Part shown: positions 2,109 to 34,782 of the stretch, in pieces
Layout: each line of letters begins with the position of its first letter
Numbering within the stretch: the stretch's first letter is position 1
IMG/VR virus record: IMGVR_UViG_3300048586_000134
Span: 89,703-127,895 of that record
Direction: 5' to 3' (one strand)
Length of the DNA stretch: 38,193 nt
Source of the DNA: a virus
Lineage: Duplodnaviria > Heunggongvirae > Uroviricota > Caudoviricetes
Program-made: the position numbers and the translations under genes
The notes under the pieces: generated by a model
The model's database searches: none
What the model saw: the letters and a program-made list of their open reading frames with translations, nothing else
Told to the model about the DNA's origin: nothing

Positions 2109-2462
2109 ATGAAGGTAAATGATGCAGTCGCCTTGATCGATGTGCTGGCATGGGGTGGAAACTACCCAAAAGAGATACTCAAGATTGCGCGAGAGATTCT
2201 GGTCTGGTATAATGCCTATCTGGAATCTGTCACAATTGGCTCAAGCGGTATTTATCTCTTCTTCTTCAACCGCGAAGCAGACAAAGTTGCTCAGGTTTAC
2301 TTCAGCAGGCTCTTTCCTGAGTCGTACGAAGTTCGTTTCTACGACGTTGGCGCAGGTATTATTCCGAACTCAAAATATGGTAGTTTCAGACTGACGACGA
2401 GTCAGCAATACTGTCACTTGCATAAATTTCTCGATGATGGTATCATTCGGGAGGTGGCATGA
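2109..2462 (+). CDS. Hypothetical protein
   Basis: 117-aa ORF, GGAGG RBS. Confidence 0.75.
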   Translation: MKVNDAVALIDVLAWGGNYPKEILKIAREILVWYNAYLESVTIGSSGIYLFFFNREADKVAQVYFSRLFPESYEVRFYDVGAGIIPNSKYGSFRLTTSQQYCHLHKFLDDGIIREVA

Positions 2463-2674
2463 TGGTCCGCGTGATCAAAGAGGACAAAGAGTTCGAAATC
2501 CGTTGCACGGATTGCCTGCATCTCCTTGCTTACAAGCTCGAAGACATTGAAGATGTCTATGACTACGATTACACTGGTAGTCGAGACTATCTCGGTAAGG
2601 GTATCACATGTCCTGTTTGCCGTGAAAGGCTTGTTATTGGACACAAGAAGGAGGTTCGCCATGAAAATCATTAA
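2459..2674 (+). CDS. Small Zn-ribbon protein (paralog 2)
   Basis: CTDC...CPVC, ATGA overlap with previous gene. Confidence 0.75.
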   Translation: MMVRVIKEDKEFEIRCTDCLHLLAYKLEDIEDVYDYDYTGSRDYLGKGITCPVCRERLVIGHKKEVRHENH

Positions 2675-4829: not shown

Positions 4830-5877
4830 GCATGGGATTGTTGCAGGGAAATTCTGGCCGCTGCACAAGGGACATGACGCCCTCATTCGTACAGCCTTGC
4901 GGCAGTGCGAACGCGTCACCGTCTTTGTGGTTTGGCTTGGCGATCAGGAACCAAGTGGTTTGACGCGTCAGGCATGGGTGCAAGCTGCCTATCCGCAAGC
5001 AGATGTACGACTTGTGGTGGATATCTGTACTGATGATAACCATCCAGACTCGTCAGTGACGTGGGCTGAGTACACGAAGGACATTCTCGAAGGCGATCTT
5101 CCCGATGCGGTCTTCTCGTCTGAGCCGTACGGAACATGGTGGGCTGCAAATATGGGAGCGCAGCACGTTCAGGTCAACCTGAATCGTAGCTACTTCCCGA
5201 TTAGTGGAACCATGATACGAAGTGATCCATATAAGTACTTTCACTACATCCATCCGATTGCGCGTGCGTACTACAACAAGCGCGTTCTCGTGGTAGGTGC
5301 TGAATCGACAGGCAAGACAACGCTATGCGCTGATCTTGCAATCGACTACTCTACGGTCTTTGTGCCTGAGTATGGTCGTATCTATGTCGAGAACAAGGCA
5401 TCTCGCGATGGTGTTGATGAGCGTGCCTGTTTTGGCGAAATCGTGAATCGACAGCTTCGTATGGAAGAAGAATATCTGAAAGACGCAAATCGCGTCCTTT
5501 TCTGCGACACTGATCTTTTCACAACGTCTCTCTGGTGGGAGCGTTGGATGGGAACGGGCTATGACCGTCTCTGGAATACGATTCAGACGATGGGGATCGA
5601 GCATGCGCATAAATATGATCTTGTACTCGTGATGGATCATGAAGGAACCGAGTGGGTTGATGACGGATTCCGCGATCAGCGTGATACGCGTGCGTGGTTT
5701 ACGGAGAACCTTGAAAACTTCTTCCGTTCGGTTGTTGTAAAAGAGTTCTACCCGACAGATGAGCGTCCACTCAATGTGGTCAAGCTGTCTGGCTCATGGG
5801 AAGAGCGTCACAAGACGGCGATTGCCGCTGTGAACGAGATTTTCGGTCAAACGGAGGCATTGCTTCCAAGGAGTTAA
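4822..5877 (+). CDS. nadR: NadR-like bifunctional NMN adenylyltransferase / ribosylnicotinamide kinase
   Basis: GKFWPLHKGH, ISGTMIR, GAESTGKTT, EYGR, FCDTD. Confidence 0.92.
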   Translation: MFKHGIVAGKFWPLHKGHDALIRTALRQCERVTVFVVWLGDQEPSGLTRQAWVQAAYPQADVRLVVDICTDDNHPDSSVTWAEYTKDILEGDLPDAVFSSEPYGTWWAANMGAQHVQVNLNRSYFPISGTMIRSDPYKYFHYIHPIARAYYNKRVLVVGAESTGKTTLCADLAIDYSTVFVPEYGRIYVENKASRDGVDERACFGEIVNRQLRMEEEYLKDANRVLFCDTDLFTTSLWWERWMGTGYDRLWNTIQTMGIEHAHKYDLVLVMDHEGTEWVDDGFRDQRDTRAWFTENLENFFRSVVVKEFYPTDERPLNVVKLSGSWEERHKTAIAAVNEIFGQTEALLPRS

Positions 5878-5881
5878 CACT

Positions 5882-5941
5882 ATGTATATCGGCATTGGTA
5901 CACTACTCATCATTATCATTCTGCTCATTCTTCTTTTCTAG
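5882..5941 (+). CDS. 19-aa hydrophobic micropeptide
   Basis: MYIGIGTLLIIIILLILLF; AAGGAG RBS 8 nt upstream. Confidence 0.55.
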   Translation: MYIGIGTLLIIIILLILLF

Positions 5942-5961
5942 GAGGCTTCGCGCCTCCATCT

Positions 5962-6034
5962 GCCGCGTAAGCTATTGTGGAACAGCAGCCGACTTTTAAT
6001 CGGCAGACGGCGGGTTCGATGCCTGCACGCGGTA
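5962..6034 (+). tRNA. tRNA-Lys(TTT)
   Basis: GCCGA-CTTTTAA-TCGGC, TTT 5995-5997. Confidence 0.88.
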
Positions 6035-6048
6035 CAGGGATTTTGCGT

Positions 6049-6375
6049 ATGGTGAACAAGACACGAATACGATCTGAGCTAAAGTCATGGTTTTACACAC
6101 TCAAGAGTCAATGTGCCTGTGTAGACTGTGGAGAAGCGCATCCAGCGTGTCTTGATTTCCATCACCGTAATCCTCGACATAAGGTTATGTCTGTCTCTGA
6201 GATGGTGAACCTGTGTTTTTCAAAGGACGACATTATTACAGAGATTATGAAATGTGATTCGCTGTGTGCGAATTGCCACCGAAAGCGGCATTGGGCCGAA
6301 GGAGGTTATTATGGAAAACGACATTCAACGCGTCGAGGTAGACGTGATCTACGTGCTTCGGAACAACGATGGTGA
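6049..6375 (+). CDS. HNH endonuclease (family A)
   Basis: CVDC...LDFHHR...KCDSLCANCHRKRH; start moved to ATG 6049, after the tRNA. Confidence 0.85.
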   Translation: MVNKTRIRSELKSWFYTLKSQCACVDCGEAHPACLDFHHRNPRHKVMSVSEMVNLCFSKDDIITEIMKCDSLCANCHRKRHWAEGGYYGKRHSTRRGRRDLRASEQRW

Positions 6376-6538
6376 TCTGTTCACGAAGTCAGAGTTGACA
6401 CGGAATACCTTCGTCGGGTATCTTACGGTAGACGCAGCGAGACGAGCGCGTGCGCATGCCAATAAAGTCGGGTATAATCCGCCATTCGAGATTGTACCAA
6501 TCCAAGTTTCGTCACTAGGCTTCACCCAAGAAGTCTAG
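6311..6538 (+). CDS. Hypothetical protein
   Basis: GGAGG RBS, 75 aa. Confidence 0.7.
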   Translation: MENDIQRVEVDVIYVLRNNDGDLFTKSELTRNTFVGYLTVDAARRARAHANKVGYNPPFEIVPIQVSSLGFTQEV

Positions 6539-6539
6539 A

Positions 6540-6577
6540 TGTCGCCAAAATCAAACGTATCGCATATGATAGTATGT
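6540..6577 (+). promoter_or_regulatory. Repeated sigma70-like promoter, copy 1
   Basis: TCGCCA 6542-6547, 17 nt, TATGAT 6565-6570; same motif at 10993 and 16734. Confidence 0.8.
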
Positions 6578-6584
6578 GATACAT

Positions 6585-6655
6585 GCTTCCTTAGCTGAGT
6601 GGCTTAGCAACTGGCTCTTAACCAGTAGAGCGGAGTTCGATCCTCCGAGGGGGCA
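6585..6655 (+). tRNA. tRNA-Lys(CTT)
   Basis: ACTGG-CTCTTAA-CCAGT, CTT 6617-6619. Confidence 0.9.
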
Positions 6656-6659
6656 CTAT

Positions 6660-6734
6660 GGTGGGTGTAGCCTAATGGTAAGGCGAACGGCTGTGAACCG
6701 TGCTATTCGAGTTCGATCCTCGACATTCACCCCA
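6660..6734 (+). tRNA. tRNA-His(GTG)
   Basis: G-1:C73, GTG 6693-6695, encoded CCA. Confidence 0.93.
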
Positions 6735-7172
6735 TATCCGAAGATTGCTCGCTCTCAATGTGAGAGAGGAAAGTCCGCGCAGCGCAGAGTAGGGTGCCAA
6801 GGCTAAGAACCGAGGGCACCAAGGAGAAACACATGACAAACCGACTATCGATGACGCTCTTGATCCGTCTGAACTCCGATTCAGAAATCACCGCTGACCG
6901 CGTTGCGGAACTAGTGGCAGAACGTCTGGCAGAGCTTCCTGACGTAAAGGCCGTCATGACGGTTGATGTGACCGATCTTGGTGACAGTCAGACTAACAGA
7001 AAAGATTCTTGGGTTGACGAAGAGGCTGATGTCCAGTCCGATCCAAGCTGAAAATAGTAGAGAATCCTCCCTGCTGCAAGTTCGACCGTGGTGTGTCACT
7101 CGCACAAGACCACGAAGTAACGCTGAGATAGATGAGCATTGGAACAGAACGCGGCTTACATAAAGGGTATGG
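6735..7172 (+). ncRNA. rnpB: RNase P RNA, bacterial type A-like, lacking P18
   Basis: GAGGAAAGTCC 6766-6776 and ACAGAACGCGGCTTA 7144-7158; P2, P3, P4, P5 (GCAGC/GCTGC), P6 (GAGT/ACTC), P7 and P15-17 all pair. Confidence 0.88.
6833..7051 (+). CDS. Possible 72-aa ORF inside the RNase P RNA S-domain
   Basis: AAGGAG RBS 6 nt before ATG 6833; amphipathic ADRVAELVAERLAELPDV. Confidence 0.5.
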   Translation: MTNRLSMTLLIRLNSDSEITADRVAELVAERLAELPDVKAVMTVDVTDLGDSQTNRKDSWVDEEADVQSDPS

Positions 7173-7255
7173 AAACTTCTTGCTTTCTCGCGGCATTATT
7201 CAAGTGCAAGGACACTTGTTACGACGAATTGTGTGAGATACAAGACGAAATTGAT

Positions 7256-7337
7256 GCAGATATGGCGGAACGGCATACGCGGTAGCTTCAGAAGCTATGA
7301 TCTTGTGATCGTGAGAGTTCGAATCTCTCTATCTGCA
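7256..7337 (+). tRNA. tRNA-Leu(CAG)
   Basis: CAG 7289-7291, long variable arm. Confidence 0.92.
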
Positions 7338-7339
7338 CC

Positions 7340-7490
7340 GAGCATAAGCCGACCTTCAATCGTTATCATCCCCACCAAGGAGAGCCACGACTCTCCACTT
7401 GGGGACGAGGGGTTCGACTCCCCCGTATAGCGACGGTTCGCATGTTGGCAGACATCCAACGTGTGCGGTTTTAGGACTTATTGCTTGCTC
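7340..7490 (+). ncRNA. Y RNA-like #2
   Basis: AAGC[C]GA/TTGCTT; CCTtcAATCG/CGGTTttAGG; CGTTATC; internal T-arm GGGG-TTCGACT-CCCC 7409-7423. Confidence 0.82.
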
Positions 7491-7549
7491 TCTCTTGTCT
7501 AGGAGAGTGCTCGTGGTGGATGTTCGGGGTTGCTTGCGGCTCCGAATGT

Positions 7550-7622
7550 GGGGAATTGGCGCAACGGCAGACGCATTAATTTTAAAAATTAAGAGTTGTG
7601 GGTTCGAATCCCACATTCCCTA
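7550..7622 (+). tRNA. tRNA-Leu(TAA), short variable loop
   Basis: TTAAT-TTTAAAA-ATTAA, TAA 7583-7585, Leu-type D loop. Confidence 0.85.
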
Positions 7623-7638
7623 CTGACTAGGAGGGTGT

Positions 7639-8058
7639 ATGCGAAAATATACAGATGATGATATCATTGTGTATGCAGCAGAGTCCTTCAGTCTTGCGCA
7701 GTTGCTTTCTAAGCTAGGTCTTCGGTCTGCTGGTGGTAACTATGCACATATGAAGAAGCATCTTCAACGCCTTAATGTTGACACATCTCACTGGACTGGA
7801 CAGGCGTGGAGCGCCGACCAACGTCTCAAGGACTGGTCAAAGTTTAAGAAGATGGATTGGTTAAAAAAGCACCTTATCCGTGAGCGAGGACATCGGTGTG
7901 AGAAATGCTTGACAGAGATGTGGTTTGATGATATGATTACGTTAGAAGTTCATCACATTGATGGTGATCGCACTAACAACGTATACGAGAACCTTCAACT
8001 TCTTTGTCCAAATTGTCATTCGTACACCGACAATTGGCGAGGGAAGAATAAAAAATAA
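7639..8058 (+). CDS. HNH endonuclease (family B)
   Basis: CEKC...LEVHHIDGDRTNN...NLQLLCPNCHS. Confidence 0.92.
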   Translation: MRKYTDDDIIVYAAESFSLAQLLSKLGLRSAGGNYAHMKKHLQRLNVDTSHWTGQAWSADQRLKDWSKFKKMDWLKKHLIRERGHRCEKCLTEMWFDDMITLEVHHIDGDRTNNVYENLQLLCPNCHSYTDNWRGKNKK

Positions 8059-9055: not shown

Positions 9056-9339
9056 GGAGGAGCTATGTAGATATCGAATTCCTGCCTAACGCCCACAAGG
9101 GGAGATGGGATCGTCAGATATGTGGCAGACTGACGTTTGCGCATGTTCGTGACGAACTTGGAAATATTTCTCCGTGGCCTGTGACGCATGCTCGCGCCAA
9201 GGAGACCGTTCGCGTACTTGTGCATGCCTTTGACCGTGAAGAGCACGAGCAAGGTAAATGGTATGATACCTATCTTGTCTTGAAGCAGGAGTCGGAGAGC
9301 GTCTGGTACTTCGAAATCCTGCAACCGTGGCTAGACTAA
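9052..9339 (+). CDS. Hypothetical protein
   Basis: ATGA overlap, 95 aa. Confidence 0.65.
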   Translation: MRRSYVDIEFLPNAHKGRWDRQICGRLTFAHVRDELGNISPWPVTHARAKETVRVLVHAFDREEHEQGKWYDTYLVLKQESESVWYFEILQPWLD

Positions 9340-24957: not shown

Positions 24958-27900
24958 ATGGAGCACACAGATCGCGACCAATTAGCTCGTGCCTTGCACG
25001 GTGGACGTGCGACTGAAATTGAAGCAGCGCTTCGAGATGTTATTTCTGACTTCGTGCGTGATCAAACAGATGTGCGGCAGGCGGTCGCGGATGTCATCTA
25101 CCAAATGGGTATGGGTGATATCGATGCGGGTGTTATCTCGGTTAATGGAAGACTCGGAACGGTTGTCCTCACACAAGACGCCATTCCTGACGGCAACAAC
25201 GCCAAGCAGTTTTCCATTTTCGACAAGGCCAAGCTCGACTCTGTTGCAATTGGCGCAACCGCAAACCAGACCGACGCCTTTTTGGTTAGTCGGGCAAATC
25301 ATACAGGAACACAGTCCGCTGATACCATTGTCAACGGTGTAACCAACAAGGTACTTACGGCGGCTGAAAAAGCAAAACTCACCAGCATGAATGCAGGAGC
25401 AACGGTCAACTCCCCCGACAGCTTTCTCCTGAATCGGGCGAACCACACTGGAACGCAGTCGGCAGCAACCATCTCCGACCTTTCCAATGTGGTTCGTTCT
25501 ATTTTGGCTGATATCAGTATTGCGGTTTCGTCAGTTAACGGTCAGGGTGGCGATGTTGTCCTTGATCTTGATGACATTCTTGCTGGACAACTGAACAAGC
25601 ACTTCACAGAAGCCGAAAAAGTCAAGCTCCTCGGGATTGCTTCTGGTGCGACGGCGAACAACACGGACGCATTTCTTACGAATCGTGCGAATCACACAGG
25701 TACGCAATCGTCTACAACCATCGCGGATTTCGACACGGCAGTTGCCACGAATACGTTTGTCGCCGCAGCGACCGCTGCTCGACACACGCACGCGAACAAG
25801 TCTGTTCTTGATAATGTAACAGCGGCATACACAACCACTGAGCAAACAAAGCTCGCGGGTATTGCTCCAAACGCAACCGCGAACGCCTCGGATGCGCAGC
25901 TACGGGACCGCTCCACACATACAGGAACACAGGCTCCTGATACGATTGACGGTCTTGCGGAGACGATTCTCGACACCGTAGGGAACTCACTCATCGCTGG
26001 CGACAATATTAGCATCGTTTATGATGACGAGGGTGATACCGTCAACTTTGTGGTTTCCGCCACGAGTGGGGCAGTTTCGTCCGTCAACGGTCAAACGGGT
26101 ATCGTGGCGCTCGATCAGGACGACATTCCTGATGGAACAACTGCAAAGCAGTTCACTGCAACCGAGAAGACGAAACTCTCGGGAATTGCGACAGGAGCGA
26201 CAGCGAACTCGACTGACGCTCAGCTTCGAAGCCGCGCAACCCACACAGGAACGCAGACGGCATCGACCATCAGCGATTTCGATCTGGCGGTCTCTCAGAA
26301 CACGACCGTCCAAGCGAACACCACAGCACGCCACTCGCACACAAACAAGGCATTGCTTGACAGCTACAACCGCACCAACGAAGAGATTTCAAATGCGGTT
26401 GCGATTGCACACTCACACACAAACGGCGCAGTTCTCAACGCTACGACGGCTTCATTCACAACGGCACTCAAGACCAAGCTCGACGGTATCGCGACAGGGG
26501 CAACAGCAAACGACACTGATGCCAACCTTCGTAGCCGTGCGACACACACTGGCACGCAACCATCGACAACCATCTCGGACTTTGCAGAAGCAGTTCGGGA
26601 CACGATGGGAGTAGCGCTGGTCGCTGGTACGAACATCACAATTACTCCTGACGATGCTGCGAACACGATTACCATCAACTCAACCGCAAGTACGAGTGGT
26701 GAGGTAGAATCGGTTAACGGGCAGATAGGAATTGTCGTTCTCGATCAGGATGATATTCTTGACGGCACCACGGCTAAGCAATTCACGGCGACAGAGAAAA
26801 CGAAGCTCGCTGGAATCGCGACCGCCGCAACCGCAAACAGCACTGACGCGCAATTACGTGATCGTGCGACACATACGGGAACACAGCTTTCCTCCACGAT
26901 CAGCAACTTCCAGACAAGCGTTTCCGCGAATACGGACGTTGCTGCGAACACCACGGCTCGACACACGCACACCAATAAGACCATCCTCGATGCAGTCACC
27001 GCAGCCTTCACGACAGCGGATGAAACCAAGCTCGACGGTATCCAGGCTGGCGCTACAGTTAATGCGACCGATGCGGCTCTTCGTGACCGCACAACGCATA
27101 CAGGCACACAACCCTCCACGACGATTTCCGATTTCTCGGAAGCCGTACGTGACACGATGGGTCTGGCATTGGTGGCGGGTGATAACGTTACGATCACTCC
27201 TGATGACAACGCGAACACCATCACCATTACCTCGGTTGCGGGTGGACAGGTTGACTCGGTAAACGGACAGACTGGTAATGTGACGCTGACGCAGGATGAC
27301 GTGGCAGATGGACTGATTGCGAAGCAGTTCACGGTATCTGAGGAAACCAAGCTGGCAGGGATTGCCGCTGGTGCGACTGTTAATGATACCGATGCAGCGC
27401 TCCGTGACCGTTCGACGCACACAGGAACACAAACTGCATCAACGATCAGCGACTTCCAGACAACGGTAAGCGCGAATGCGACGGTAGCTGCAAATACGGC
27501 AGCGAGACACACGCATACGAACCAAGCCGTTCTCGACGCAACAACCGCATCCTTTACACTTGCTGACGAAAGCAAGCTCGACGGCGTTCAAGCAGGAGCT
27601 ACCGCAAACGCGTCAGATTCGTCTCTAAGGGATCGAAGTACCCACACAGGTACGCAGACATCAAATACGATTTCTGACCTCTCTGAGACGATCCTAGAGC
27701 GCGTGGGAGGCATCCTACAAGCAGGTGCCAATGTTACCCTGACGCCAAACACCGAAACAGACACCATTACCATTGCCGCAATTGTCGAAAGTGGTATGGG
27801 TGAGGTTAATTCGGTCAATGGTGCTACGGGTGTTGTTACCCTCGACACCGACGACATTCCAAGCGGTACAGTTACGTCACAGTACACGAACACCGAGAAG

Positions 27901-30900
27901 ACAAAGCTCGCAGGTATCCAGAGTGGTGCAACCGCGAATGCAACCGATGCTCAACTACGTGATCGTAGTACGCATACGGGAACGCAATTGGCGTCCACCA
28001 TTTCTGACTTCCAGACGGCGGTTTCCGCCAACGCCGATCTAGTGGCTCTGGTTGGTCATGACCACGACGCGGACTATGCCGCACTCGTTCACGACCACGA
28101 TGGGCGCTACTACACAGAGACGGAAGTTAACACGCTCCTGACTGGAAAATCAGACACAACTCACAATCATGACGCCGAGTACGCGACAATTGGTCACGAT
28201 CACGATCTTGACTATGCGTTGATTGCGCACGGTCATGTTATCGCTGATGTAACTGGACTCCAAACCGCACTCGACGGAAAAGCAGCAACCACTCATAATC
28301 ACGATCTGACGTATGCACCGATTGTGCACACGCACGACGAGTATGCGACGGATGCTGATTTGACGGCTGGTTTGGCAACAAAGTCAAATACGACGCATAT
28401 CCATGACGACCGCTACTACACAGAAACGGAAGTTGATGATGCGCTTGTTTTGAAAGCAAATGCTGATCACACACACGCCGATCTGGTTACGGATGCTGAG
28501 TTTGCAACGGCTCTAGCGGGAAAGAGTGACACAACCCACAATCACGATACTGTGTACGCGGCTCTTAGCCACGGACATGTTATTGCTGATGTTACGGGTT
28601 TGCAGGCGGCTCTCGATGCGAAGGCCGCAGCAGGACACAACCACGATTCGGCTTATGCCGCCCTTGTTCATGGTCACGTTATCGGAGACGTTACAGGTCT
28701 TCAGACGGCGTTGGATGGTAAGGCTTCAACATCGCACAATCACGATCTGGTTTACTCCGCAATCGGACACACGCATAGCGATCTGGTTACGGACGCGGAA
28801 CTGGCAACCGCACTTTCGGGTAAGGCTGATACAGTTCACGATCACGACACGCGGTACTATACTGAAACCGAAACGGACACGTTGCTTGCGGGTAAAGCGA
28901 ATACCGTGCATACGCACGACGACCGATACTTTACTGAATCGGAAGTAACGACCTTACTAGCTGGCAAGAGTGACACGACACACAACCACGATGCAGCGTA
29001 TGCGGTTATTGGACACAATCATGACAGTGCCTATGCAAGTATAACACACGATCACGACACCGACTATGCCGCGCTCGTACATGATCATGATGGTCGCTAC
29101 TATACGGAAACAGAAGTTGATGACGCGCTCGTGCTGAAAGCTGACGCGGATCATTTGCACACAGGAGTCTATGCCCCTGTTGCGCATGACCACGACCTTG
29201 ATTATGCAGCTATCGGACATCTTCACGATGACCGCTACTTTACTGAAACCGAGGTAACGGACGCGCTCGCCGCAAAAGCAAATGTAGCACACATGCACGC
29301 CATTGCGGATACAACGGGACTTCAGGCCGCACTAGATGGTAAAGCGGCAACCGTCCATAACCACGACGCGGCATACGCTGCTCTTGTGCATGGTCATGCT
29401 ATTACCGACGTAACTGGTCTACAGACGGCTCTTGATGGAAAGGCTGCAACAGGACACGATCACGATCTGGACTACGCAGCAATCGATCATACACACGCTG
29501 ATCTGGTAACAGATGGTGAGTTTGCGACAGCGCTTGCAGGAAAGTCCGATATAGCGCACACGCATGACGGTCGATATTACACCGAGACAGAAGTTGATAC
29601 CTTCCTGGCTGGCAAGTCTGATACGACGCATAATCACGATGCCGCATATGCGGCTCTTGGTCACAACCATGACGCCGACTACGCGGACATTGCGCACAAT
29701 CACGACCTAGACTATGCGGATATTGCCCACCTCCACGACGGTCGTTATTACACAGAGACCGAAATTGATACGGCGTTGGCGCTGAAGTCAGATACTACAC
29801 ATAATCACGCTGGCGTCTATGCACCGACTGTCCACGATCATGACTCACGTTATTACACGGAGACGGAAATTGATACGGCTCTAGCTGGTAAAGCAAACAC
29901 AACGCACGCGCACGCCATTGCGGATGTGACCAATTTGCAGTCCAGTCTTGACGGTAAAGCAAGCAGCACGCATAACCACGATCTTGTGTATGCGGCTATC
30001 GGCCACAACCACGATGCGGCATACTCCGCACTTGGTCACAATCACGATGATCGCTACTTTACGGAATCCGAAGTCACAACCGCTCTGGCAGGGAAGTCAG
30101 ATACGGGCCACACGCACACAGCGGCCAATGTTACCGACTTCAACACGGCGGCGGATGCTCGCATTACTGCTCAGAAGGGTGTCGCGAGCGGACTGGCAAC
30201 GCTTGACGGTTCTGGTAAGATTCCAACGACGCAGATTCCTCCGATTGCGATGACTGACGTTTCGGTTGTGGCGTCTCAGGCGGCACAATTGGCACTGACC
30301 TCGCAAGAGGGTGACGTTGTTATTCGAACCGACCTCAATCGCACCTACATTCACAACGGCGGCAGCGCGGGGACAATGGCCGATTGGACTGAAATGGCGA
30401 CTCCAACCGATGTCGTTCAGAGCGTCAATGGTCAGACTGGCGTTGTCACCCTGACGACGACCAATGTGAATGAGGGAACCAACCTTTACTACACCGAAGC
30501 AAGAGTCAACGCCAACACGAATGTCGCTGCGAATACGTCTGCACGTCACTCGCACAGCAACAAGGCAACTCTTGACGCGGTGACAGCGGCGTTCACGACG
30601 GCGCTGAATACGAAGCTGACTGGAATCGAGACAGGAGCGGATGTCACGGACGCTGCGAATGTCGATGCCGCAGGAGCGGTCATGAATACGGATACCACGA
30701 CAGCAGCAATGCAGTTCGTGGTTGATGAAGACAGCATGACCTCCAATAGCGCAACCAAGGTTCCAACCCAGCAGAGTGTCAAGGCGTATGTGGACACAGG
30801 ACTTGCAACGAAAGCAAGCAGCACGCACAACCATGATGCGACGTATGCAGCGCTCGTGCATGATCACGATAGCCGTTACTACACCGAGACGGAGATTGAC

Positions 30901-33900
30901 ACGGCACTCGCTGGAAAAGCGAATACCGCGCACGACCACGATACTCGATACTACACCGAAACCGAAGTCGATACCCTGCTTGCTGATAAGAGTAACACAA
31001 CTCACAATCACGACGCAAGCTACGCGCCACTGGTTCACAACCATGACACGCTGTACTACACCGAGTCGGAAGTTGACACCCTGCTGGCTGGAAAGTCCGC
31101 GACGAGTCACACACACGTCACCGCTGACGTAACGGGACTCGATACGGCTCTGGCAGGTAAGGCTGCTTCAAGCCACACGCACCATGTCAATGATCTGACC
31201 GCGACAGGAACGAAGTCTACGACGACCTTCCTCCGAGGTGACAACACCTGGGCGACTCCGCCGAACACAACCTATGCGGTTCCGACGCAAGCAGAAGCAG
31301 AAGCGGGTACGGCAACGACTGGACGCGCATTCAGCGCTCAGCGCGTCAATCAGGCGATTCAGGCGTTGGCTCCTGTTAAGGCTGCTGATCTGGCAACCAA
31401 GGCGAATGTGTCGCACACGCATGTCATCGGAGACACGACTGGCCTTCAGGCGGCTCTTGACGGTAAGGCAAGTACGACACACAATCACGATGCGACCTAT
31501 GCGGCTCTTGCACATACCCATGCTATCGCAGATACAACGGGATTGCAAGCGGCTCTGGATGGGAAGGCGTCAACAACACATAACCACGACGCGGCATACG
31601 CGGCGATTGGTCATAACCATGATGCTGCTTATGCGGCTCTCGTCCATGACCATGACACACGCTATTACACCGAGACAGAGGTTGATACCCTTCTTGGAGG
31701 AAAAGCGAACAGTTCGCACACGCACGCAATCTCGGATGTGACAAACTACCGTTCCGAAATCTGGAACGCGATGTCACACACCTCGCAACCAGCCGAAACC
31801 GAAATAGGTTCGGGAGCGGATGCGGGTACGGCGACTGCAAGCGTGGCGATTGGTAACAACGCGCAAACGCTTGAGGCAAACTCCGTTGCAATCGGTCAGT
31901 TTGCTGCTGCACACGGCGAAAGCTCGACTGTCATTGGTGATCTGGCGTATGCAATGGGTGACCGTGGCTTTGCGATTGGAGCAAACGCTGAAGCCGACAA
32001 TGCTGATGAAGGTGTTCTGAGAGCAAACTCGGTAAAGATTCAGCGGTCGAACGGAACGGGAGCAACGACGCTCAATGTGGCGGCTCCTGATGGTACGGCG
32101 AAGGTTCTTGGCATCGGCAATGATAACATTCCGACGATCAATGGCGTTGCACTCTCCATCCCGCACAACCATGACGCGACCTATGCGGCGATCAGTCACA
32201 CGCATGTTGCAGCGAACATTACCGACTTCGACACTGAGGTGTCCAACAACACCGACGTGACAGCAAATACGGCGGCTCGTCACAGTCATGCAAATAAGGC
32301 GCTTCTCGATACGTACGCACAAACAGAAGTCAATCTGGCAGATGCCGTAGCCAAGAAGCACAGTCACAGCAATCAGGCCGTACTTGACGCAACGACTGCT
32401 TCGTATACAACAGCGCTCAACACCAAGCTCTCTGGCATCGAAGCACTCGCTGATGTAACTGACGCAGCAAACGTAGACGCTGCTGGCGCGGTCATGAACT
32501 CCGACACCACAACTGCTTCAATGTCGTTTGTGGTTGACGAAGATGCAATGACTTCGAATAGTGCCACAAAGGTGCCGACGCAACAAAGTGTGAAAGCGTA
32601 TGTCGATACGGGATTGAGCGGAAAGGCGAACACGTCGCACACGCACACCGCAGCGAACATTACGGATTTCAGCACGGCGGCAGATGCACGAATTACGGCA
32701 CAAAAAGGTAATGCGAGTGGTCTGGCTACCCTGGATGCTGGCGGCAAGATTCCATCGACACAGCTTCCTGCTATCGGTCTCACGGATGTCAATGTTGTCG
32801 CGTCTCAGGCAGCGCAGCTTGCATTAACGGCCCAAGAGGGTGACGTTGCGATCCGCTCTGACCTGAACCGCAGCTATATCCACAATGGCGGTACAGCGGG
32901 AACTATGGCTGACTGGACCGAACTGGCAACGCCGACTGACGCAGTACAAAGCGTCAACGGTCAGACAGGTGCGGTTTCACTTACCACGACAAACATCAAT
33001 GAAGGTACGAATCTCTACTACACCGAGGCTCGTGTCAATGCGAATACGAATGTTGCGGCGAACACGGCTGCACGACACAGCCACTCCAACAAGGCTCTTC
33101 TTGATACGTACACACAGACCGAGGCAAACCTCGCGGATGCGGTATCCAAGAAGCACAGTCACGCAAATCAGGCAACGCTCGATGCGACAACCGCTTCCTA
33201 CACGACAGCACTCAACACGAAGCTGACAGGTATTGAAGCACTCGCTGATGTGACGGATGCGGCGAATGTTGATGCGGCTGGTGCAGTTATGAATTCGGAC
33301 ACGACAACGGCAAGTATGTCGTTTGTTGTGAATGAAAACAACATGGTGTCGAATAGTACGACCAAGGTTCCAACGCAGGCAAGCGTCAAGAGTTATGTCG
33401 ATACTGGTCTGGCTGGTAAGGCGGCAAGCTCGCACTCACACGCTATCTCGGACGTGACAAACTTACAGACAACGCTCGATGGTAAGGCGTCCTCGACACA
33501 TAACCATGATGCAACGTATGCGGCTCTGTCGCACACACACACGGCAGCGAATGTTACTGATTTTGCTGAGGTTGTCCGAGATACGATGGGAACCGCGCTC
33601 GTTGCGGGTTCGAACATCACGATTACACCAAATGATGTAGGCGATACCATTACGATTGCTGCTACGTCAACTGCTCCTGTAACGTCGGTTAACACCCTCA
33701 CTGGTGCGGTCACGCTTACGCAAGATAACATCGGTGATGGTACAACATACAAACAATACTCGCAAACCGAGAAGAGTAAGCTCGCTGGCATCGAAGCTGG
33801 TGCAGACGTTACTGACGCGGCAAATGTCGATGCTGCTGGCGCGGTAATGAATTCGGATACTTCGACGGCTTCTATGTCCTTTGTCATTGACGAAGACGCG

Positions 33901-34782
33901 ATGACAACGAATACCGCGACCAAGGTGCCGACACAACAGAGCGTGAAAGCCTACGTTGACGCGGGGCTTGCAACGAAGGCGGCGACAAGCCATAATCACG
34001 ATGCAACCTACGCAGCGCTTTCGCACACGCACGATGACCGCTACTACACTGAAAGTGAAATGGCGACTCTGTTGAACGCGAAAGCAGGATTGGTTCACAC
34101 GCATGCGGCATCTGAGCTTACAGCAACAGGTACGCGAGACGCAACGACATTTCTCCGTGGTGACAACACATGGCAAGTGCCTCCTCTTGCAACCCATACG
34201 CACGATGATCGATATTATACTGAGACTGAGATTAACTCTCAGATGTCAGGCAAGGCAAACTCAGTACACAGTCACGCCGCAGTCGATGTCATCGACTTCG
34301 CTGAAACCGTTCGTGATACAATGGGTGCAGCCCTTGTTGGTGGTACGGGTATCACGGTTACGCCAAACGACGTTGGAGATACCATTACCATTACGAATAA
34401 CGCCTCGGTGGTGACTGTCTGCGATTCTGCAAGTGCTGCATCGACAGCAAGTACGACAAGCACGACAGTCTATGCTACAGCGTTATCTACGAACATCACA
34501 CTTCCTGCTGGTACGTGGACGGTGAATGCTATTGGCGGTCTTCTCTGTACACACAGCGCAAGTGGTACTGTGAACGTGCAAACTGTTATTGCTGGTGATG
34601 CAGGAACAGCACGCGCAATCAGCGGTGTTTCAAGTTCATCTCCAAATATGGTGGTAGACAACGCTGTTAAGGGAGGCCAGTCTGGAACAATTACCTGTCT
34701 CATTCAGTACAAGTCCAGCACGGCTGGAACAACTGCTGCGAAGAACCCTTGGATTACCATTATTGCGGAGAGAACCGCGTAA
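24958..34782 (+). CDS. Giant (3274 aa) His-rich repetitive fibre protein, tail fibre/whisker-like
   Basis: Many HxHD, HTHDDRYYTETE, RANHTGTQ, SVNGQTG and HxIADVTGLQxALDGKA (phage tail repeat-like) units; YadA-head-like xAIG repeats at about 31810-32010. Confidence 0.85.
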   Translation: MEHTDRDQLARALHGGRATEIEAALRDVISDFVRDQTDVRQAVADVIYQMGMGDIDAGVISVNGRLGTVVLTQDAIPDGNNAKQFSIFDKAKLDSVAIGATANQTDAFLVSRANHTGTQSADTIVNGVTNKVLTAAEKAKLTSMNAGATVNSPDSFLLNRANHTGTQSAATISDLSNVVRSILADISIAVSSVNGQGGDVVLDLDDILAGQLNKHFTEAEKVKLLGIASGATANNTDAFLTNRANHTGTQSSTTIADFDTAVATNTFVAAATAARHTHANKSVLDNVTAAYTTTEQTKLAGIAPNATANASDAQLRDRSTHTGTQAPDTIDGLAETILDTVGNSLIAGDNISIVYDDEGDTVNFVVSATSGAVSSVNGQTGIVALDQDDIPDGTTAKQFTATEKTKLSGIATGATANSTDAQLRSRATHTGTQTASTISDFDLAVSQNTTVQANTTARHSHTNKALLDSYNRTNEEISNAVAIAHSHTNGAVLNATTASFTTALKTKLDGIATGATANDTDANLRSRATHTGTQPSTTISDFAEAVRDTMGVALVAGTNITITPDDAANTITINSTASTSGEVESVNGQIGIVVLDQDDILDGTTAKQFTATEKTKLAGIATAATANSTDAQLRDRATHTGTQLSSTISNFQTSVSANTDVAANTTARHTHTNKTILDAVTAAFTTADETKLDGIQAGATVNATDAALRDRTTHTGTQPSTTISDFSEAVRDTMGLALVAGDNVTITPDDNANTITITSVAGGQVDSVNGQTGNVTLTQDDVADGLIAKQFTVSEETKLAGIAAGATVNDTDAALRDRSTHTGTQTASTISDFQTTVSANATVAANTAARHTHTNQAVLDATTASFTLADESKLDGVQAGATANASDSSLRDRSTHTGTQTSNTISDLSETILERVGGILQAGANVTLTPNTETDTITIAAIVESGMGEVNSVNGATGVVTLDTDDIPSGTVTSQYTNTEKTKLAGIQSGATANATDAQLRDRSTHTGTQLASTISDFQTAVSANADLVALVGHDHDADYAALVHDHDGRYYTETEVNTLLTGKSDTTHNHDAEYATIGHDHDLDYALIAHGHVIADVTGLQTALDGKAATTHNHDLTYAPIVHTHDEYATDADLTAGLATKSNTTHIHDDRYYTETEVDDALVLKANADHTHADLVTDAEFATALAGKSDTTHNHDTVYAALSHGHVIADVTGLQAALDAKAAAGHNHDSAYAALVHGHVIGDVTGLQTALDGKASTSHNHDLVYSAIGHTHSDLVTDAELATALSGKADTVHDHDTRYYTETETDTLLAGKANTVHTHDDRYFTESEVTTLLAGKSDTTHNHDAAYAVIGHNHDSAYASITHDHDTDYAALVHDHDGRYYTETEVDDALVLKADADHLHTGVYAPVAHDHDLDYAAIGHLHDDRYFTETEVTDALAAKANVAHMHAIADTTGLQAALDGKAATVHNHDAAYAALVHGHAITDVTGLQTALDGKAATGHDHDLDYAAIDHTHADLVTDGEFATALAGKSDIAHTHDGRYYTETEVDTFLAGKSDTTHNHDAAYAALGHNHDADYADIAHNHDLDYADIAHLHDGRYYTETEIDTALALKSDTTHNHAGVYAPTVHDHDSRYYTETEIDTALAGKANTTHAHAIADVTNLQSSLDGKASSTHNHDLVYAAIGHNHDAAYSALGHNHDDRYFTESEVTTALAGKSDTGHTHTAANVTDFNTAADARITAQKGVASGLATLDGSGKIPTTQIPPIAMTDVSVVASQAAQLALTSQEGDVVIRTDLNRTYIHNGGSAGTMADWTEMATPTDVVQSVNGQTGVVTLTTTNVNEGTNLYYTEARVNANTNVAANTSARHSHSNKATLDAVTAAFTTALNTKLTGIETGADVTDAANVDAAGAVMNTDTTTAAMQFVVDEDSMTSNSATKVPTQQSVKAYVDTGLATKASSTHNHDATYAALVHDHDSRYYTETEIDTALAGKANTAHDHDTRYYTETEVDTLLADKSNTTHNHDASYAPLVHNHDTLYYTESEVDTLLAGKSATSHTHVTADVTGLDTALAGKAASSHTHHVNDLTATGTKSTTTFLRGDNTWATPPNTTYAVPTQAEAEAGTATTGRAFSAQRVNQAIQALAPVKAADLATKANVSHTHVIGDTTGLQAALDGKASTTHNHDATYAALAHTHAIADTTGLQAALDGKASTTHNHDAAYAAIGHNHDAAYAALVHDHDTRYYTETEVDTLLGGKANSSHTHAISDVTNYRSEIWNAMSHTSQPAETEIGSGADAGTATASVAIGNNAQTLEANSVAIGQFAAAHGESSTVIGDLAYAMGDRGFAIGANAEADNADEGVLRANSVKIQRSNGTGATTLNVAAPDGTAKVLGIGNDNIPTINGVALSIPHNHDATYAAISHTHVAANITDFDTEVSNNTDVTANTAARHSHANKALLDTYAQTEVNLADAVAKKHSHSNQAVLDATTASYTTALNTKLSGIEALADVTDAANVDAAGAVMNSDTTTASMSFVVDEDAMTSNSATKVPTQQSVKAYVDTGLSGKANTSHTHTAANITDFSTAADARITAQKGNASGLATLDAGGKIPSTQLPAIGLTDVNVVASQAAQLALTAQEGDVAIRSDLNRSYIHNGGTAGTMADWTELATPTDAVQSVNGQTGAVSLTTTNINEGTNLYYTEARVNANTNVAANTAARHSHSNKALLDTYTQTEANLADAVSKKHSHANQATLDATTASYTTALNTKLTGIEALADVTDAANVDAAGAVMNSDTTTASMSFVVNENNMVSNSTTKVPTQASVKSYVDTGLAGKAASSHSHAISDVTNLQTTLDGKASSTHNHDATYAALSHTHTAANVTDFAEVVRDTMGTALVAGSNITITPNDVGDTITIAATSTAPVTSVNTLTGAVTLTQDNIGDGTTYKQYSQTEKSKLAGIEAGADVTDAANVDAAGAVMNSDTSTASMSFVIDEDAMTTNTATKVPTQQSVKAYVDAGLATKAATSHNHDATYAALSHTHDDRYYTESEMATLLNAKAGLVHTHAASELTATGTRDATTFLRGDNTWQVPPLATHTHDDRYYTETEINSQMSGKANSVHSHAAVDVIDFAETVRDTMGAALVGGTGITVTPNDVGDTITITNNASVVTVCDSASAASTASTTSTTVYATALSTNITLPAGTWTVNAIGGLLCTHSASGTVNVQTVIAGDAGTARAISGVSSSSPNMVVDNAVKGGQSGTITCLIQYKSSTAGTTAAKNPWITIIAERTA

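Follow-up and report, generated by a model that had tools for sequence, protein, structure and literature searches.

Few ribozymes are universal. RNase P RNA is one of them, and its gene counts as a housekeeping gene of the cell. In published bacterial structures the type-A RNA is braced by four long-range struts (L9-P1, L13-P12, L14-P8, and L18-P8); archaeal type-A RNAs, according to Harris, Brown, and colleagues, reportedly lack P13, P14, and P18 and keep P15-P17 and P6. Dual-function RNAs are also known, among them transfer-messenger RNA (tmRNA), SgrS/SgrT, and RNAIII/hld, as are group I introns with open reading frames (ORFs) in their peripheral loops, which usually encode a homing enzyme or maturase serving the intron; 23S rRNA intervening sequences carry the S23p ORF. 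Here we describe a locus in a stretch of 38,193 nt (the window) that forms the last 38 kb, positions 89,703 to 127,895, of a 127,895-bp tailed-phage record, IMGVR_UViG_3300048586_000134, in IMG/VR. Positions 6732-7176 (+) of the window hold what we consider likely to be a selected, reduced type-A RNase P RNA that also carries a small protein gene; the RNA would be catalytic and the protein would be translated.

The nearest published parallel is found in the ORF-bearing insertions of rRNA genes in the Candidate Phyla Radiation (CPR), in whose description RNase P is not mentioned (PMC11270868). As in ORF-bearing rRNA insertions, a small gene occupies the end of a helix that an essential structured RNA can spare. 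Unlike in those insertions, the RNA is viral, the ORF is not a homing nuclease and has no Pfam or PHROG family, and the frame extends into the functional core of the ribozyme. The locus resembles the dual-function RNAs and ORF-bearing group I introns in that one transcript would be both structured functional RNA and message; it differs in that the window ORF has no visible link to the RNA that bears it, and none of those RNAs is an RNase P. In a search of full-text literature, the coverage of which did not extend to subscription journals, we came upon no paper that describes an RNase P RNA encoded by a virus or an RNase P RNA that contains an ORF. What appears to be new here is a viral, minimized type-A RNase P RNA that carries a small gene and supplies part of its coding sequence.

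A sequence-only reading of the window had recognized an RNase P RNA from its pairings and had proposed the Rfam bacterial type-A model as a check. When cmscan was run at an E-value threshold over region 6500-7400, RF00010 (RNaseP_bact_a) matched 6732-7176 (+) with 58.2 bits and an E value of 4.7e-17, over model positions 1-367 of 367. This is the best-scoring model of its clan for the RNA and the sole RNase P RNA match in the whole genome. The E value is far outside the range of chance, yet the score stays below the Rfam gathering threshold of 100 bits for this family; the shortfall is due to the loss of P13/P14 and P18 and to 159 additional nt in the P9 loop. The parts of the RNA are the following.

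6732..7176, + strand: phage RNase P RNA gene, 445 nt (286-nt ribozyme core plus 159-nt insert), from the RF00010 match
6766..6779, + strand: CR-I, J3-4, and the 5' strand of P4 (GAGGAAAGUCCGCG, bulged U6774); exact match to the model consensus, pairing with 7150-7157
6816..6820, + strand: 5' strand of P9, pairing with 6980-6985, with A6984 bulged
6980..7068, + strand: rest of the specificity domain (3' strand of P9, P10, P11, J11/12, and P12), from model alignment, pairing, and comparison with the relative L149
7080..7121, + strand: P15-P16-P17, from the helix script and comparison with L149; L17 (ACUC, 7098-7101) forms P6
7143..7172, + strand: CR-V (AACAGAACGCGGCUUA), 3' strand of P4, and 3' strand of P1, from model alignment and pairing

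The helices were verified with a script. P1 (6732-6739/7165-7172, 8 bp), P2 (6746-6750/7134-7138, 5 bp), and a P3 of only 6 bp (6752-6757/6761-6766) lead into P4, where AAG(U)CCGCG at 6771-6779 pairs with CGCGGCUU at 7150-7157 (8 bp, with U6774 bulged). P5 (6780-6783/7073-7076, 4 bp) is followed by the P6 pseudoknot, in which GAGU (6787-6790) pairs with ACUC (7098-7101) over 4 bp, and by P7, with 3 + 1 bp around a bulged U6795; P8, P9, P10, P11, a two-part P12 (7008-7013/7042-7047 and 7024-7028/7034-7038), P15, P16, and P17 are also present. An alternative P7 register, AGGG/CCCU, was rejected, L149 backing the covariance-model register with the bulged U6795. Pairs are canonical throughout, save for one A·G at the end of P11 that is itself conserved. 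The universal regions CR-I (GAGGAAAGUCC), CR-II (ACAGAAA), CR-III (UGAAA), CR-IV (AGAU..AUG), and CR-V (ACAGAAC.CGGCUUA) match the consensus in the window RNA and in the RNAs of two relatives, L122 and L149, and their E. coli counterparts were located. J11/12 reads ACAGAAAAG at 6996-7004, and the AA of J14/11 is kept.

The named helices of the sequence-only reading (P1, P2, P4, P5, P6, and P15-P17) are thus borne out by the script, and the absence of P18 that it reported corresponds to a reduction from 24 model positions to 0; the Escherichia coli pairs with which it compared P5 (GCUCC/GGAGC) and P6 (GGGC/GCCC) are those of the annotated MG1655 rnpB. Its picture of an ordinary ribozyme of about 440 nt holds for the size of the gene, 445 nt, but not for its makeup: about 160 nt are a coding insert in P9, and P13/P14 are missing as well, 42 model positions having shrunk to 3, with a short linker in their place. 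Judged by fold and motifs, 6732-7176 is a genuine RNase P RNA homologue. With bacterial type-A RNA (RF00010; E. coli M1 RNA, encoded by rnpB) it shares helices P1-P12 and P15-P17, the P4 and P6 pairings, and CR-I to CR-V; it differs in being phage encoded, in lacking P13, P14, and P18, in having a 159-nt coding insert in place of L9, in its L15 AGU and 6-bp P3, and in having no cognate rnpA in the same genome. The helix inventory would match that reported for archaeal type-A RNA (RF00373), from which the window RNA is set apart by its best match to the bacterial model, its tailed-phage context, and a neighboring tRNA-His with an encoded G-1.

The strongest evidence that the fold matters comes from L149, a 52-kb ENA contig to which two Logan contigs are identical. 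It was reached through a profile search with the ORF, which hit a 78-aa protein (P0004) encoded within another RNase P RNA, at L149:5906-6360 (RF00010, 84.9 bits). The two phages are well separated, their Ro60 proteins being only 43% identical, and the order of genes is similar, tRNA-Tyr, tRNA-Lys, and tRNA-His preceding the RNase P RNA, though in L149 tRNA-Lys(ttt) follows it. When the pairs of the window RNA were compared with those of L149, 76 of 77 were canonical in both RNAs; 17 of the 77 carried double compensatory changes and 7 one-sided changes, and none had changed to a mismatch. The double changes are distributed over P1, P2, P3, P5, P6, P7, P8, P9, P11, P12, and P15, and two of them fall in the P6 pseudoknot. 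In a control in which the 3' partners were slid by 1 to 3 positions, 0 to 2 double changes and at least 52 broken pairs were counted. Because 17 double changes come with no broken pair, the fold must have been under selection, and on this comparison the RNase P fold, including the pseudoknot and P4, is maintained by selection.

These counts also bear on the idea that the locus is a decaying pseudogene, a captured host rnpB disrupted by the insertion of a small phage gene. A score below the Rfam cut-off, a large insertion, and three missing helices are what decay might leave, but a decaying gene would not be expected to accumulate 17 double compensatory changes without one broken pair between lineages whose Ro60 proteins are 43% identical, nor to hold its insertion exactly in a terminal loop, with the same architecture and a different cargo in L149. 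We reject this explanation on the strength of the compensatory changes and consider it highly improbable.

The closer relative, L122 (Logan SRR33375158), has the same RNA (62.1 bits). Most of the region is 93-100% identical to the window; two patches are diverged, namely, the tRNA-Lys/tRNA-His pair (53-57% identical) and the ORF insert (70%). The two differences that fall in helices are compensated: P9 has C-G as its top pair in the window and U-A in L122, and the P12 pair 7009/7046 is U-A in the window and C-G in L122. The same P9 top pair is G-C in L149. For selection on the fold, the window/L122 comparison is nevertheless weak evidence. Both the L122 and L149 RNAs likewise have no P13, P14, or P18 and have a large insert in P9.

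That insert is the most unusual part of the RNA, and its elements are as follows.

6821..6979, + strand: P9-loop insertion, 159 nt, where the model has 4 nt; predicted from the minimum-free-energy (MFE) fold to close into an extended P9 arm
6821..6826, + strand: Shine-Dalgarno AAGGAG, directly after the P9 5' strand, with a 6-nt spacer to the ATG
6833..7051, + strand: 72-codon ORF, with its ATG at 6833 and its stop, UGA, at 7049-7051 in J12/13; supported by homologues and dN/dS

Codons 1-49 lie inside the insert; codons 50-72 are supplied by the 3' strand of P9, P10, P11, J11/12, and P12, after which the UGA in the conserved J12/13 motif serves as the stop. Homologues of the ORF product were found in P0002 (77% identical) and P0003 (69% identical; ENA ERZ1761215), each of 72 aa; the replacements in P0003 are conservative in residues 1-49, and residues 51-68 are invariant. 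Against L122, codons 1-49 have a ratio of nonsynonymous to synonymous change (dN/dS) of 0.106 at a proportion of synonymous differences (pS) of 0.68, and the 50 differences in the ORF fall 16/5/29 on the first, second, and third codon positions. Four substitutions separate the two phages in the spacer between the Shine-Dalgarno and the ATG, both of which are conserved. The remaining two frames of the region are stop rich. By this pattern of substitution, the insert encodes a protein under purifying selection, which we infer to be translated.

Where the ORF overlaps the ribozyme, synonymous change is suppressed (pS 0.16 against L122). Compared with L149, positions 6980-7051 are 90% identical, the rest of the core 68-72%, and the inserts about 50%; the conservation of 6980-7051 is what a double constraint, on RNA and protein, would give. 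Among the helices of RNase P RNA, P12 usually varies most. In this case P12 (7008-7047) is almost invariant between phages with Ro60 proteins 43% identical, and the 23 nt from 7014 to 7036 do not differ among the window, L122, and L149 RNAs. This invariance may stem partly from the overlap with the ORF tail, although synonymous positions are frozen too.

The L149 ORF (P0004) occupies the same P9 site in the same frame and has the same 22-residue tail and UGA stop, while its N-terminal 56 residues are unrelated to the window ORF (hhalign probability 0.3%); a homology of the two N-terminal cargo parts was looked for with hhalign and not detected. Pfam and PHROG searches gave no family for either ORF. 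A language-model search pointed to a 4-oxalocrotonate-tautomerase-like cluster for the window ORF, and this candidate was set aside, since its score of 0.80 is at chance level by the tool's own statistics. The AlphaFold model of the ORF product has a predicted local distance difference test (pLDDT) score of 70 (72-87 over residues 1-50, under 50 in the tail), which predicts a folded domain of moderate confidence in residues 1-50 and a disordered tail. The 22-residue C-terminal tail is acidic.

When the P9 arm was folded alone for the window, L122, and L149, the insert was predicted in all three RNAs to close on itself and lengthen P9. In the MFE fold of the window, 6821-6824 pair with 6976-6979, and L122 does likewise; 4 of the 6 Shine-Dalgarno bases are thus predicted to be paired, with probabilities of being unpaired of 0.01-0.14 for 6821-6824. 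In L149, 5989-5991 and 5993-5996 pair with 6160-6168. For most paired bases on the Shine-Dalgarno side the predicted folds give an unpaired probability of at most 0.02, and the two lineages reach this pairing through different sequences. These models suggest that ribosomes have no access to the folded ribozyme and that translation would take place on nascent or unfolded RNA.

A different relation between the two genes would hold if the ribozyme worked in two pieces. RNase P RNA put together from fragments works in vitro, and the P9 insert could be an intervening sequence cut by RNase III or another host nuclease, which would release a small mRNA and leave fragments of about 90 nt and about 195 nt joined by P1, P2, P4, P5, P7, and P9. 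The insert does cap a peripheral hairpin, where its predicted fold is a long irregular arm closed on itself (folding z-scores of -1.5 to -3.9), and the ORF-bearing CPR rRNA insertions have been reported to be removed from transcripts (PMC11270868). What makes this explanation unlikely is the ORF itself, which is not a self-contained, removable insert: codons 50-72 and the stop lie in P9-P12 of the ribozyme, so that the ORF is not cleanly excisable, and excision at the base of P9 would strip the last 23 codons, with the conserved tail, and the stop. Moreover, the closing helix is just 9 bp, with loops beyond it, and offers no long perfect duplex to RNase III.

We also entertain, tentatively and with rather more doubt than confidence, a stronger version of the uncut, two-function RNA, in which it would be a true bifunctional ribozyme-messenger that is translated first and folded afterward, with P9 as a fixed docking site for swapped genes. 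On the nascent transcript the exposed Shine-Dalgarno would allow one or a few rounds of translation, during which the ribosome would run through P9-P12. The freed 3' strand of P9 would then pair with the Shine-Dalgarno, and the specificity domain would fold to give a ribosome-proof RNase P RNA, which would act with host RnpA on the CCA-less pre-tRNAs of the phage. The P9 loop of the lineage would take up different small genes, each of which would gain the same ribozyme-encoded acidic tail.

The setting of the RNA is that of a phage. The record, whose CheckV completeness is 100, has a 127-bp exact direct terminal repeat, and PHROG searches of the genome identified a large terminase, portal, head protease, ribonucleotide reductase, primase, and DNA polymerase. 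It is a complete tailed-phage genome. The possibility, raised in the sequence-only reading as a refutation, that the contig is cellular is countered by the repeat together with the terminase, portal, protease, and DNA polymerase. No cultured phage has a portal protein more than 27% identical to this one, so no host can be inferred from it. Genes near the RNase P RNA include those for Ro60, PnuC, a NadR-like protein, and HNH endonucleases. ARAGORN finds 40 tRNA genes in the window, all on the + strand, and, as had been proposed, the RNase P RNA gene lies within this array, between tRNA-His and tRNA-Leu. Two features stand immediately upstream.

6660..6734, + strand: tRNA-His(GTG), from ARAGORN, Rfam tRNA (56.3 bits), and sequence reading
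6542..6570, + strand: sigma-70-like promoter candidate TCGCCA-17-TATGAT, from a consensus scan (9 of 12 matches); weak

The tRNA-His has an encoded G-1 (6660), C73 (6731), and an encoded CCA (6732-6734), and this CCA overlaps the RNase P RNA, being the first three bases of its P1. The promoter candidate precedes tRNA-Lys, tRNA-His, and the RNase P RNA. No terminator-like site was found on the + strand in 5800-7700, the only stretch scanned.

Several further observations concern this arm of the genome and its relatives. Small HNH-type endonuclease ORFs at 5977-6375 and 7639-8058 (+), between tRNA genes, flank the RNase P RNA; the latter matches Pfam HNH and HNH_3, and the former has a Cys/His pattern and no Pfam match. 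A single ORF of 3274 codons occupies 24958-34782 (+) in the tRNA-rich arm. The tRNA-Lys(CTT) and tRNA-His(GTG) genes at 6585-6731 are 53-57% identical to their L122 counterparts (911-1061), between flanks that are 93-100% identical, and it looks as though single tRNA genes have been swapped between the window phage and L122 by mosaic allele replacement. L122 has a weak match to the Y RNA-like YrlA (RF02553, 33 bits) at 2452-2515 (+), behind tRNA-Pro, which is consistent with a Ro60/Y RNA module. In L149, an 83-nt match to tmRNA (RF00023; 45.5 bits against a cut-off of 47) at 9198-9280 (+), directly behind a tRNA, probably represents the tRNA-like domain only.

The substrate side of the RNA also departs from that of E. 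coli. Bases G292 and G293 of the E. coli L15 pair with C75 and C74 of the tRNA, and some cellular type-A RNAs, in genomes where CCA is not encoded in the tRNA genes, also lack the L15 GGU. In the window, the J16/15 (L15) loop is AAGUA (7115-7119) where E. coli has GGGUA (291-295), so the GGU motif reads AGU; AAGUA is found in both lineages, with the equivalent of G293 kept and that of G292 an A. Among the tRNA genes found by Rfam, all 37 have C at position 74 and 10 encode a full CCA. The remaining tRNA genes read CTA, CTG, CCG, CAG, CAA, or CTC. A search of the phage for a CCA-adding enzyme (PF01743) was negative. The L15 AGU would fit an enzyme tuned to precursors that have C74 and not C75-A76.

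The catalytic core (P1-P5, the P6 pseudoknot, P15-P17, CR-I, CR-IV, and CR-V) is retained, as is the core that reads the tRNA elbow (P7-P12, J11/12, and the AA of J14/11); P13, P14, P18, and the L9 tetraloop are lost. Since each of the interdomain struts has thereby lost one partner, dependence on a protein is likely. The search for rnpA that the sequence-only reading had called for found none (PF00825) in the phage genome, a result that fits dependence on a host protein. In the explanation that we prefer, the RNase P RNA would be transcribed within the tRNA transcript, directly behind tRNA-His, and would assemble with host RnpA to cut the 5' leaders of the 40 pre-tRNAs of the phage. The same gene would carry the small protein gene in its expanded P9, with a Shine-Dalgarno, an ATG, 49 codons, and a ribozyme-encoded acidic tail; the extended P9 closure would pair the Shine-Dalgarno, and translation of the ORF would be largely confined to transcripts that are nascent or unfolded.

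It could be argued instead that the RNA no longer cleaves and is a ribozyme-derived scaffold, either a decoy that titrates host RnpA or competes with the host enzyme (host shut-off) or a frame that protects and gates the ORF mRNA. The lost peripheral struts, the change of L15 GGU to AGU, and the absence of a phage rnpA agree with such a role, as does the distribution of conservation along the RNA, which is highest where the ORF overlaps it (90% against 68-72%). Yet elements of use for catalysis and substrate binding only, among them P4 with its bulged U, CR-I, CR-IV, CR-V, the AA of J5/15, P6 (with two compensatory pairs), and the adenosines of J11/12 and J14/11, are intact in both lineages, and neither a decoy nor an mRNA frame would need them all. 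A position directly behind a tRNA in a 40-tRNA array also fits a role in processing. We therefore regard a noncleaving scaffold as quite improbable.

Several points weigh against a selected, two-function RNase P RNA, and we set them together here. With all four struts lacking one partner, activity of the RNA alone may be poor, and a ribosome on the ORF must unfold P9-P12, so that the two functions compete on one molecule. Rfam at its curated thresholds reported 37 tRNAs in the whole window and no RNase P, 58.2 bits being short of 100. Near identity of the core with L122, set beside saturated synonymous change in the ORF, was considered as proof of RNA constraint and rejected, because the spacers are 93-98% identical too and the region is mosaic. 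The three copies of the L149 ORF are identical and hence give it no comparative support. The promoter candidate at 6542-6570 is weak; its -10 box is kept in L122, and its -35 region is not. Finally, DNA was found for two independent lineages only (window/L122 and L149), and no further members came from most of the scans of viral contigs and metagenomes, whether by pattern or by protein. A blastn search with 6600-7400 against cultured phages gave no match; exact-pattern scans for close RNA relatives found none in viral contigs or prokaryote genomes; of 26 matches in an 18-mer scan of metagenomes, 24 were chance matches in coding DNA, and only two (L130 and L132) were RNase P-like; and protein-based locus searches with the ORF, the ORF alignment, and the NadR-like neighbor found no relatives.

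Other RNase P RNA homologues do occur in unrelated viral and phage-like contigs, where a motif scan of viral contigs followed by cmscan detected them. These, together with L132, are listed below by their contig handles.

L017, 3884-4149, - strand: RNase P RNA, 266 nt, 64.8 bits; in a tRNA array, with a tmRNA-like match too
L098, 650-980, + strand: RNase P RNA, 331 nt, 132.7 bits; in a tRNA array
L111, 3574-3863, + strand: RNase P RNA, 290 nt, 103.5 bits; in a tRNA array
L107, 6583-6880, - strand: RNase P RNA, 298 nt, 173.1 bits; no tRNA gene in the fetched locus
L132, 1866-2128, - strand: RNase P-like RNA, 263 nt; RF00373 best, 45.9 bits, E value 7e-11

About 3 kb separate the L107 RNA from a group I intron. 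L132 is a 109-kb metagenome contig (Ga0207756_100077) whose RNA lies in a dense tRNA array and has the same CCGCG/CGCGG variant of P4 as the window. Like the RNAs of L017, L098, L111, and L132, the window RNA is an RNase P RNA homologue in a tRNA array, reduced relative to cellular RNAs, and, as with some of these, below the Rfam cut-off. Unlike all five RNAs listed (263-331 nt), it has been lengthened, to 445 nt, by a nested gene.

If this account is true, large tRNA-rich phages bring with them the catalytic part of tRNA 5' maturation, possibly tuned to CCA-less precursors. A ribozyme gene could then carry a protein gene that overlaps its substrate-recognition core, a natural case of dual coding for RNA structure and protein, with possible competition between translation and folding on one RNA. 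The 286-nt core, with no P13, P14, P18, or L9, would likewise provide a natural minimal type-A RNA with which to test which elements the enzyme needs.

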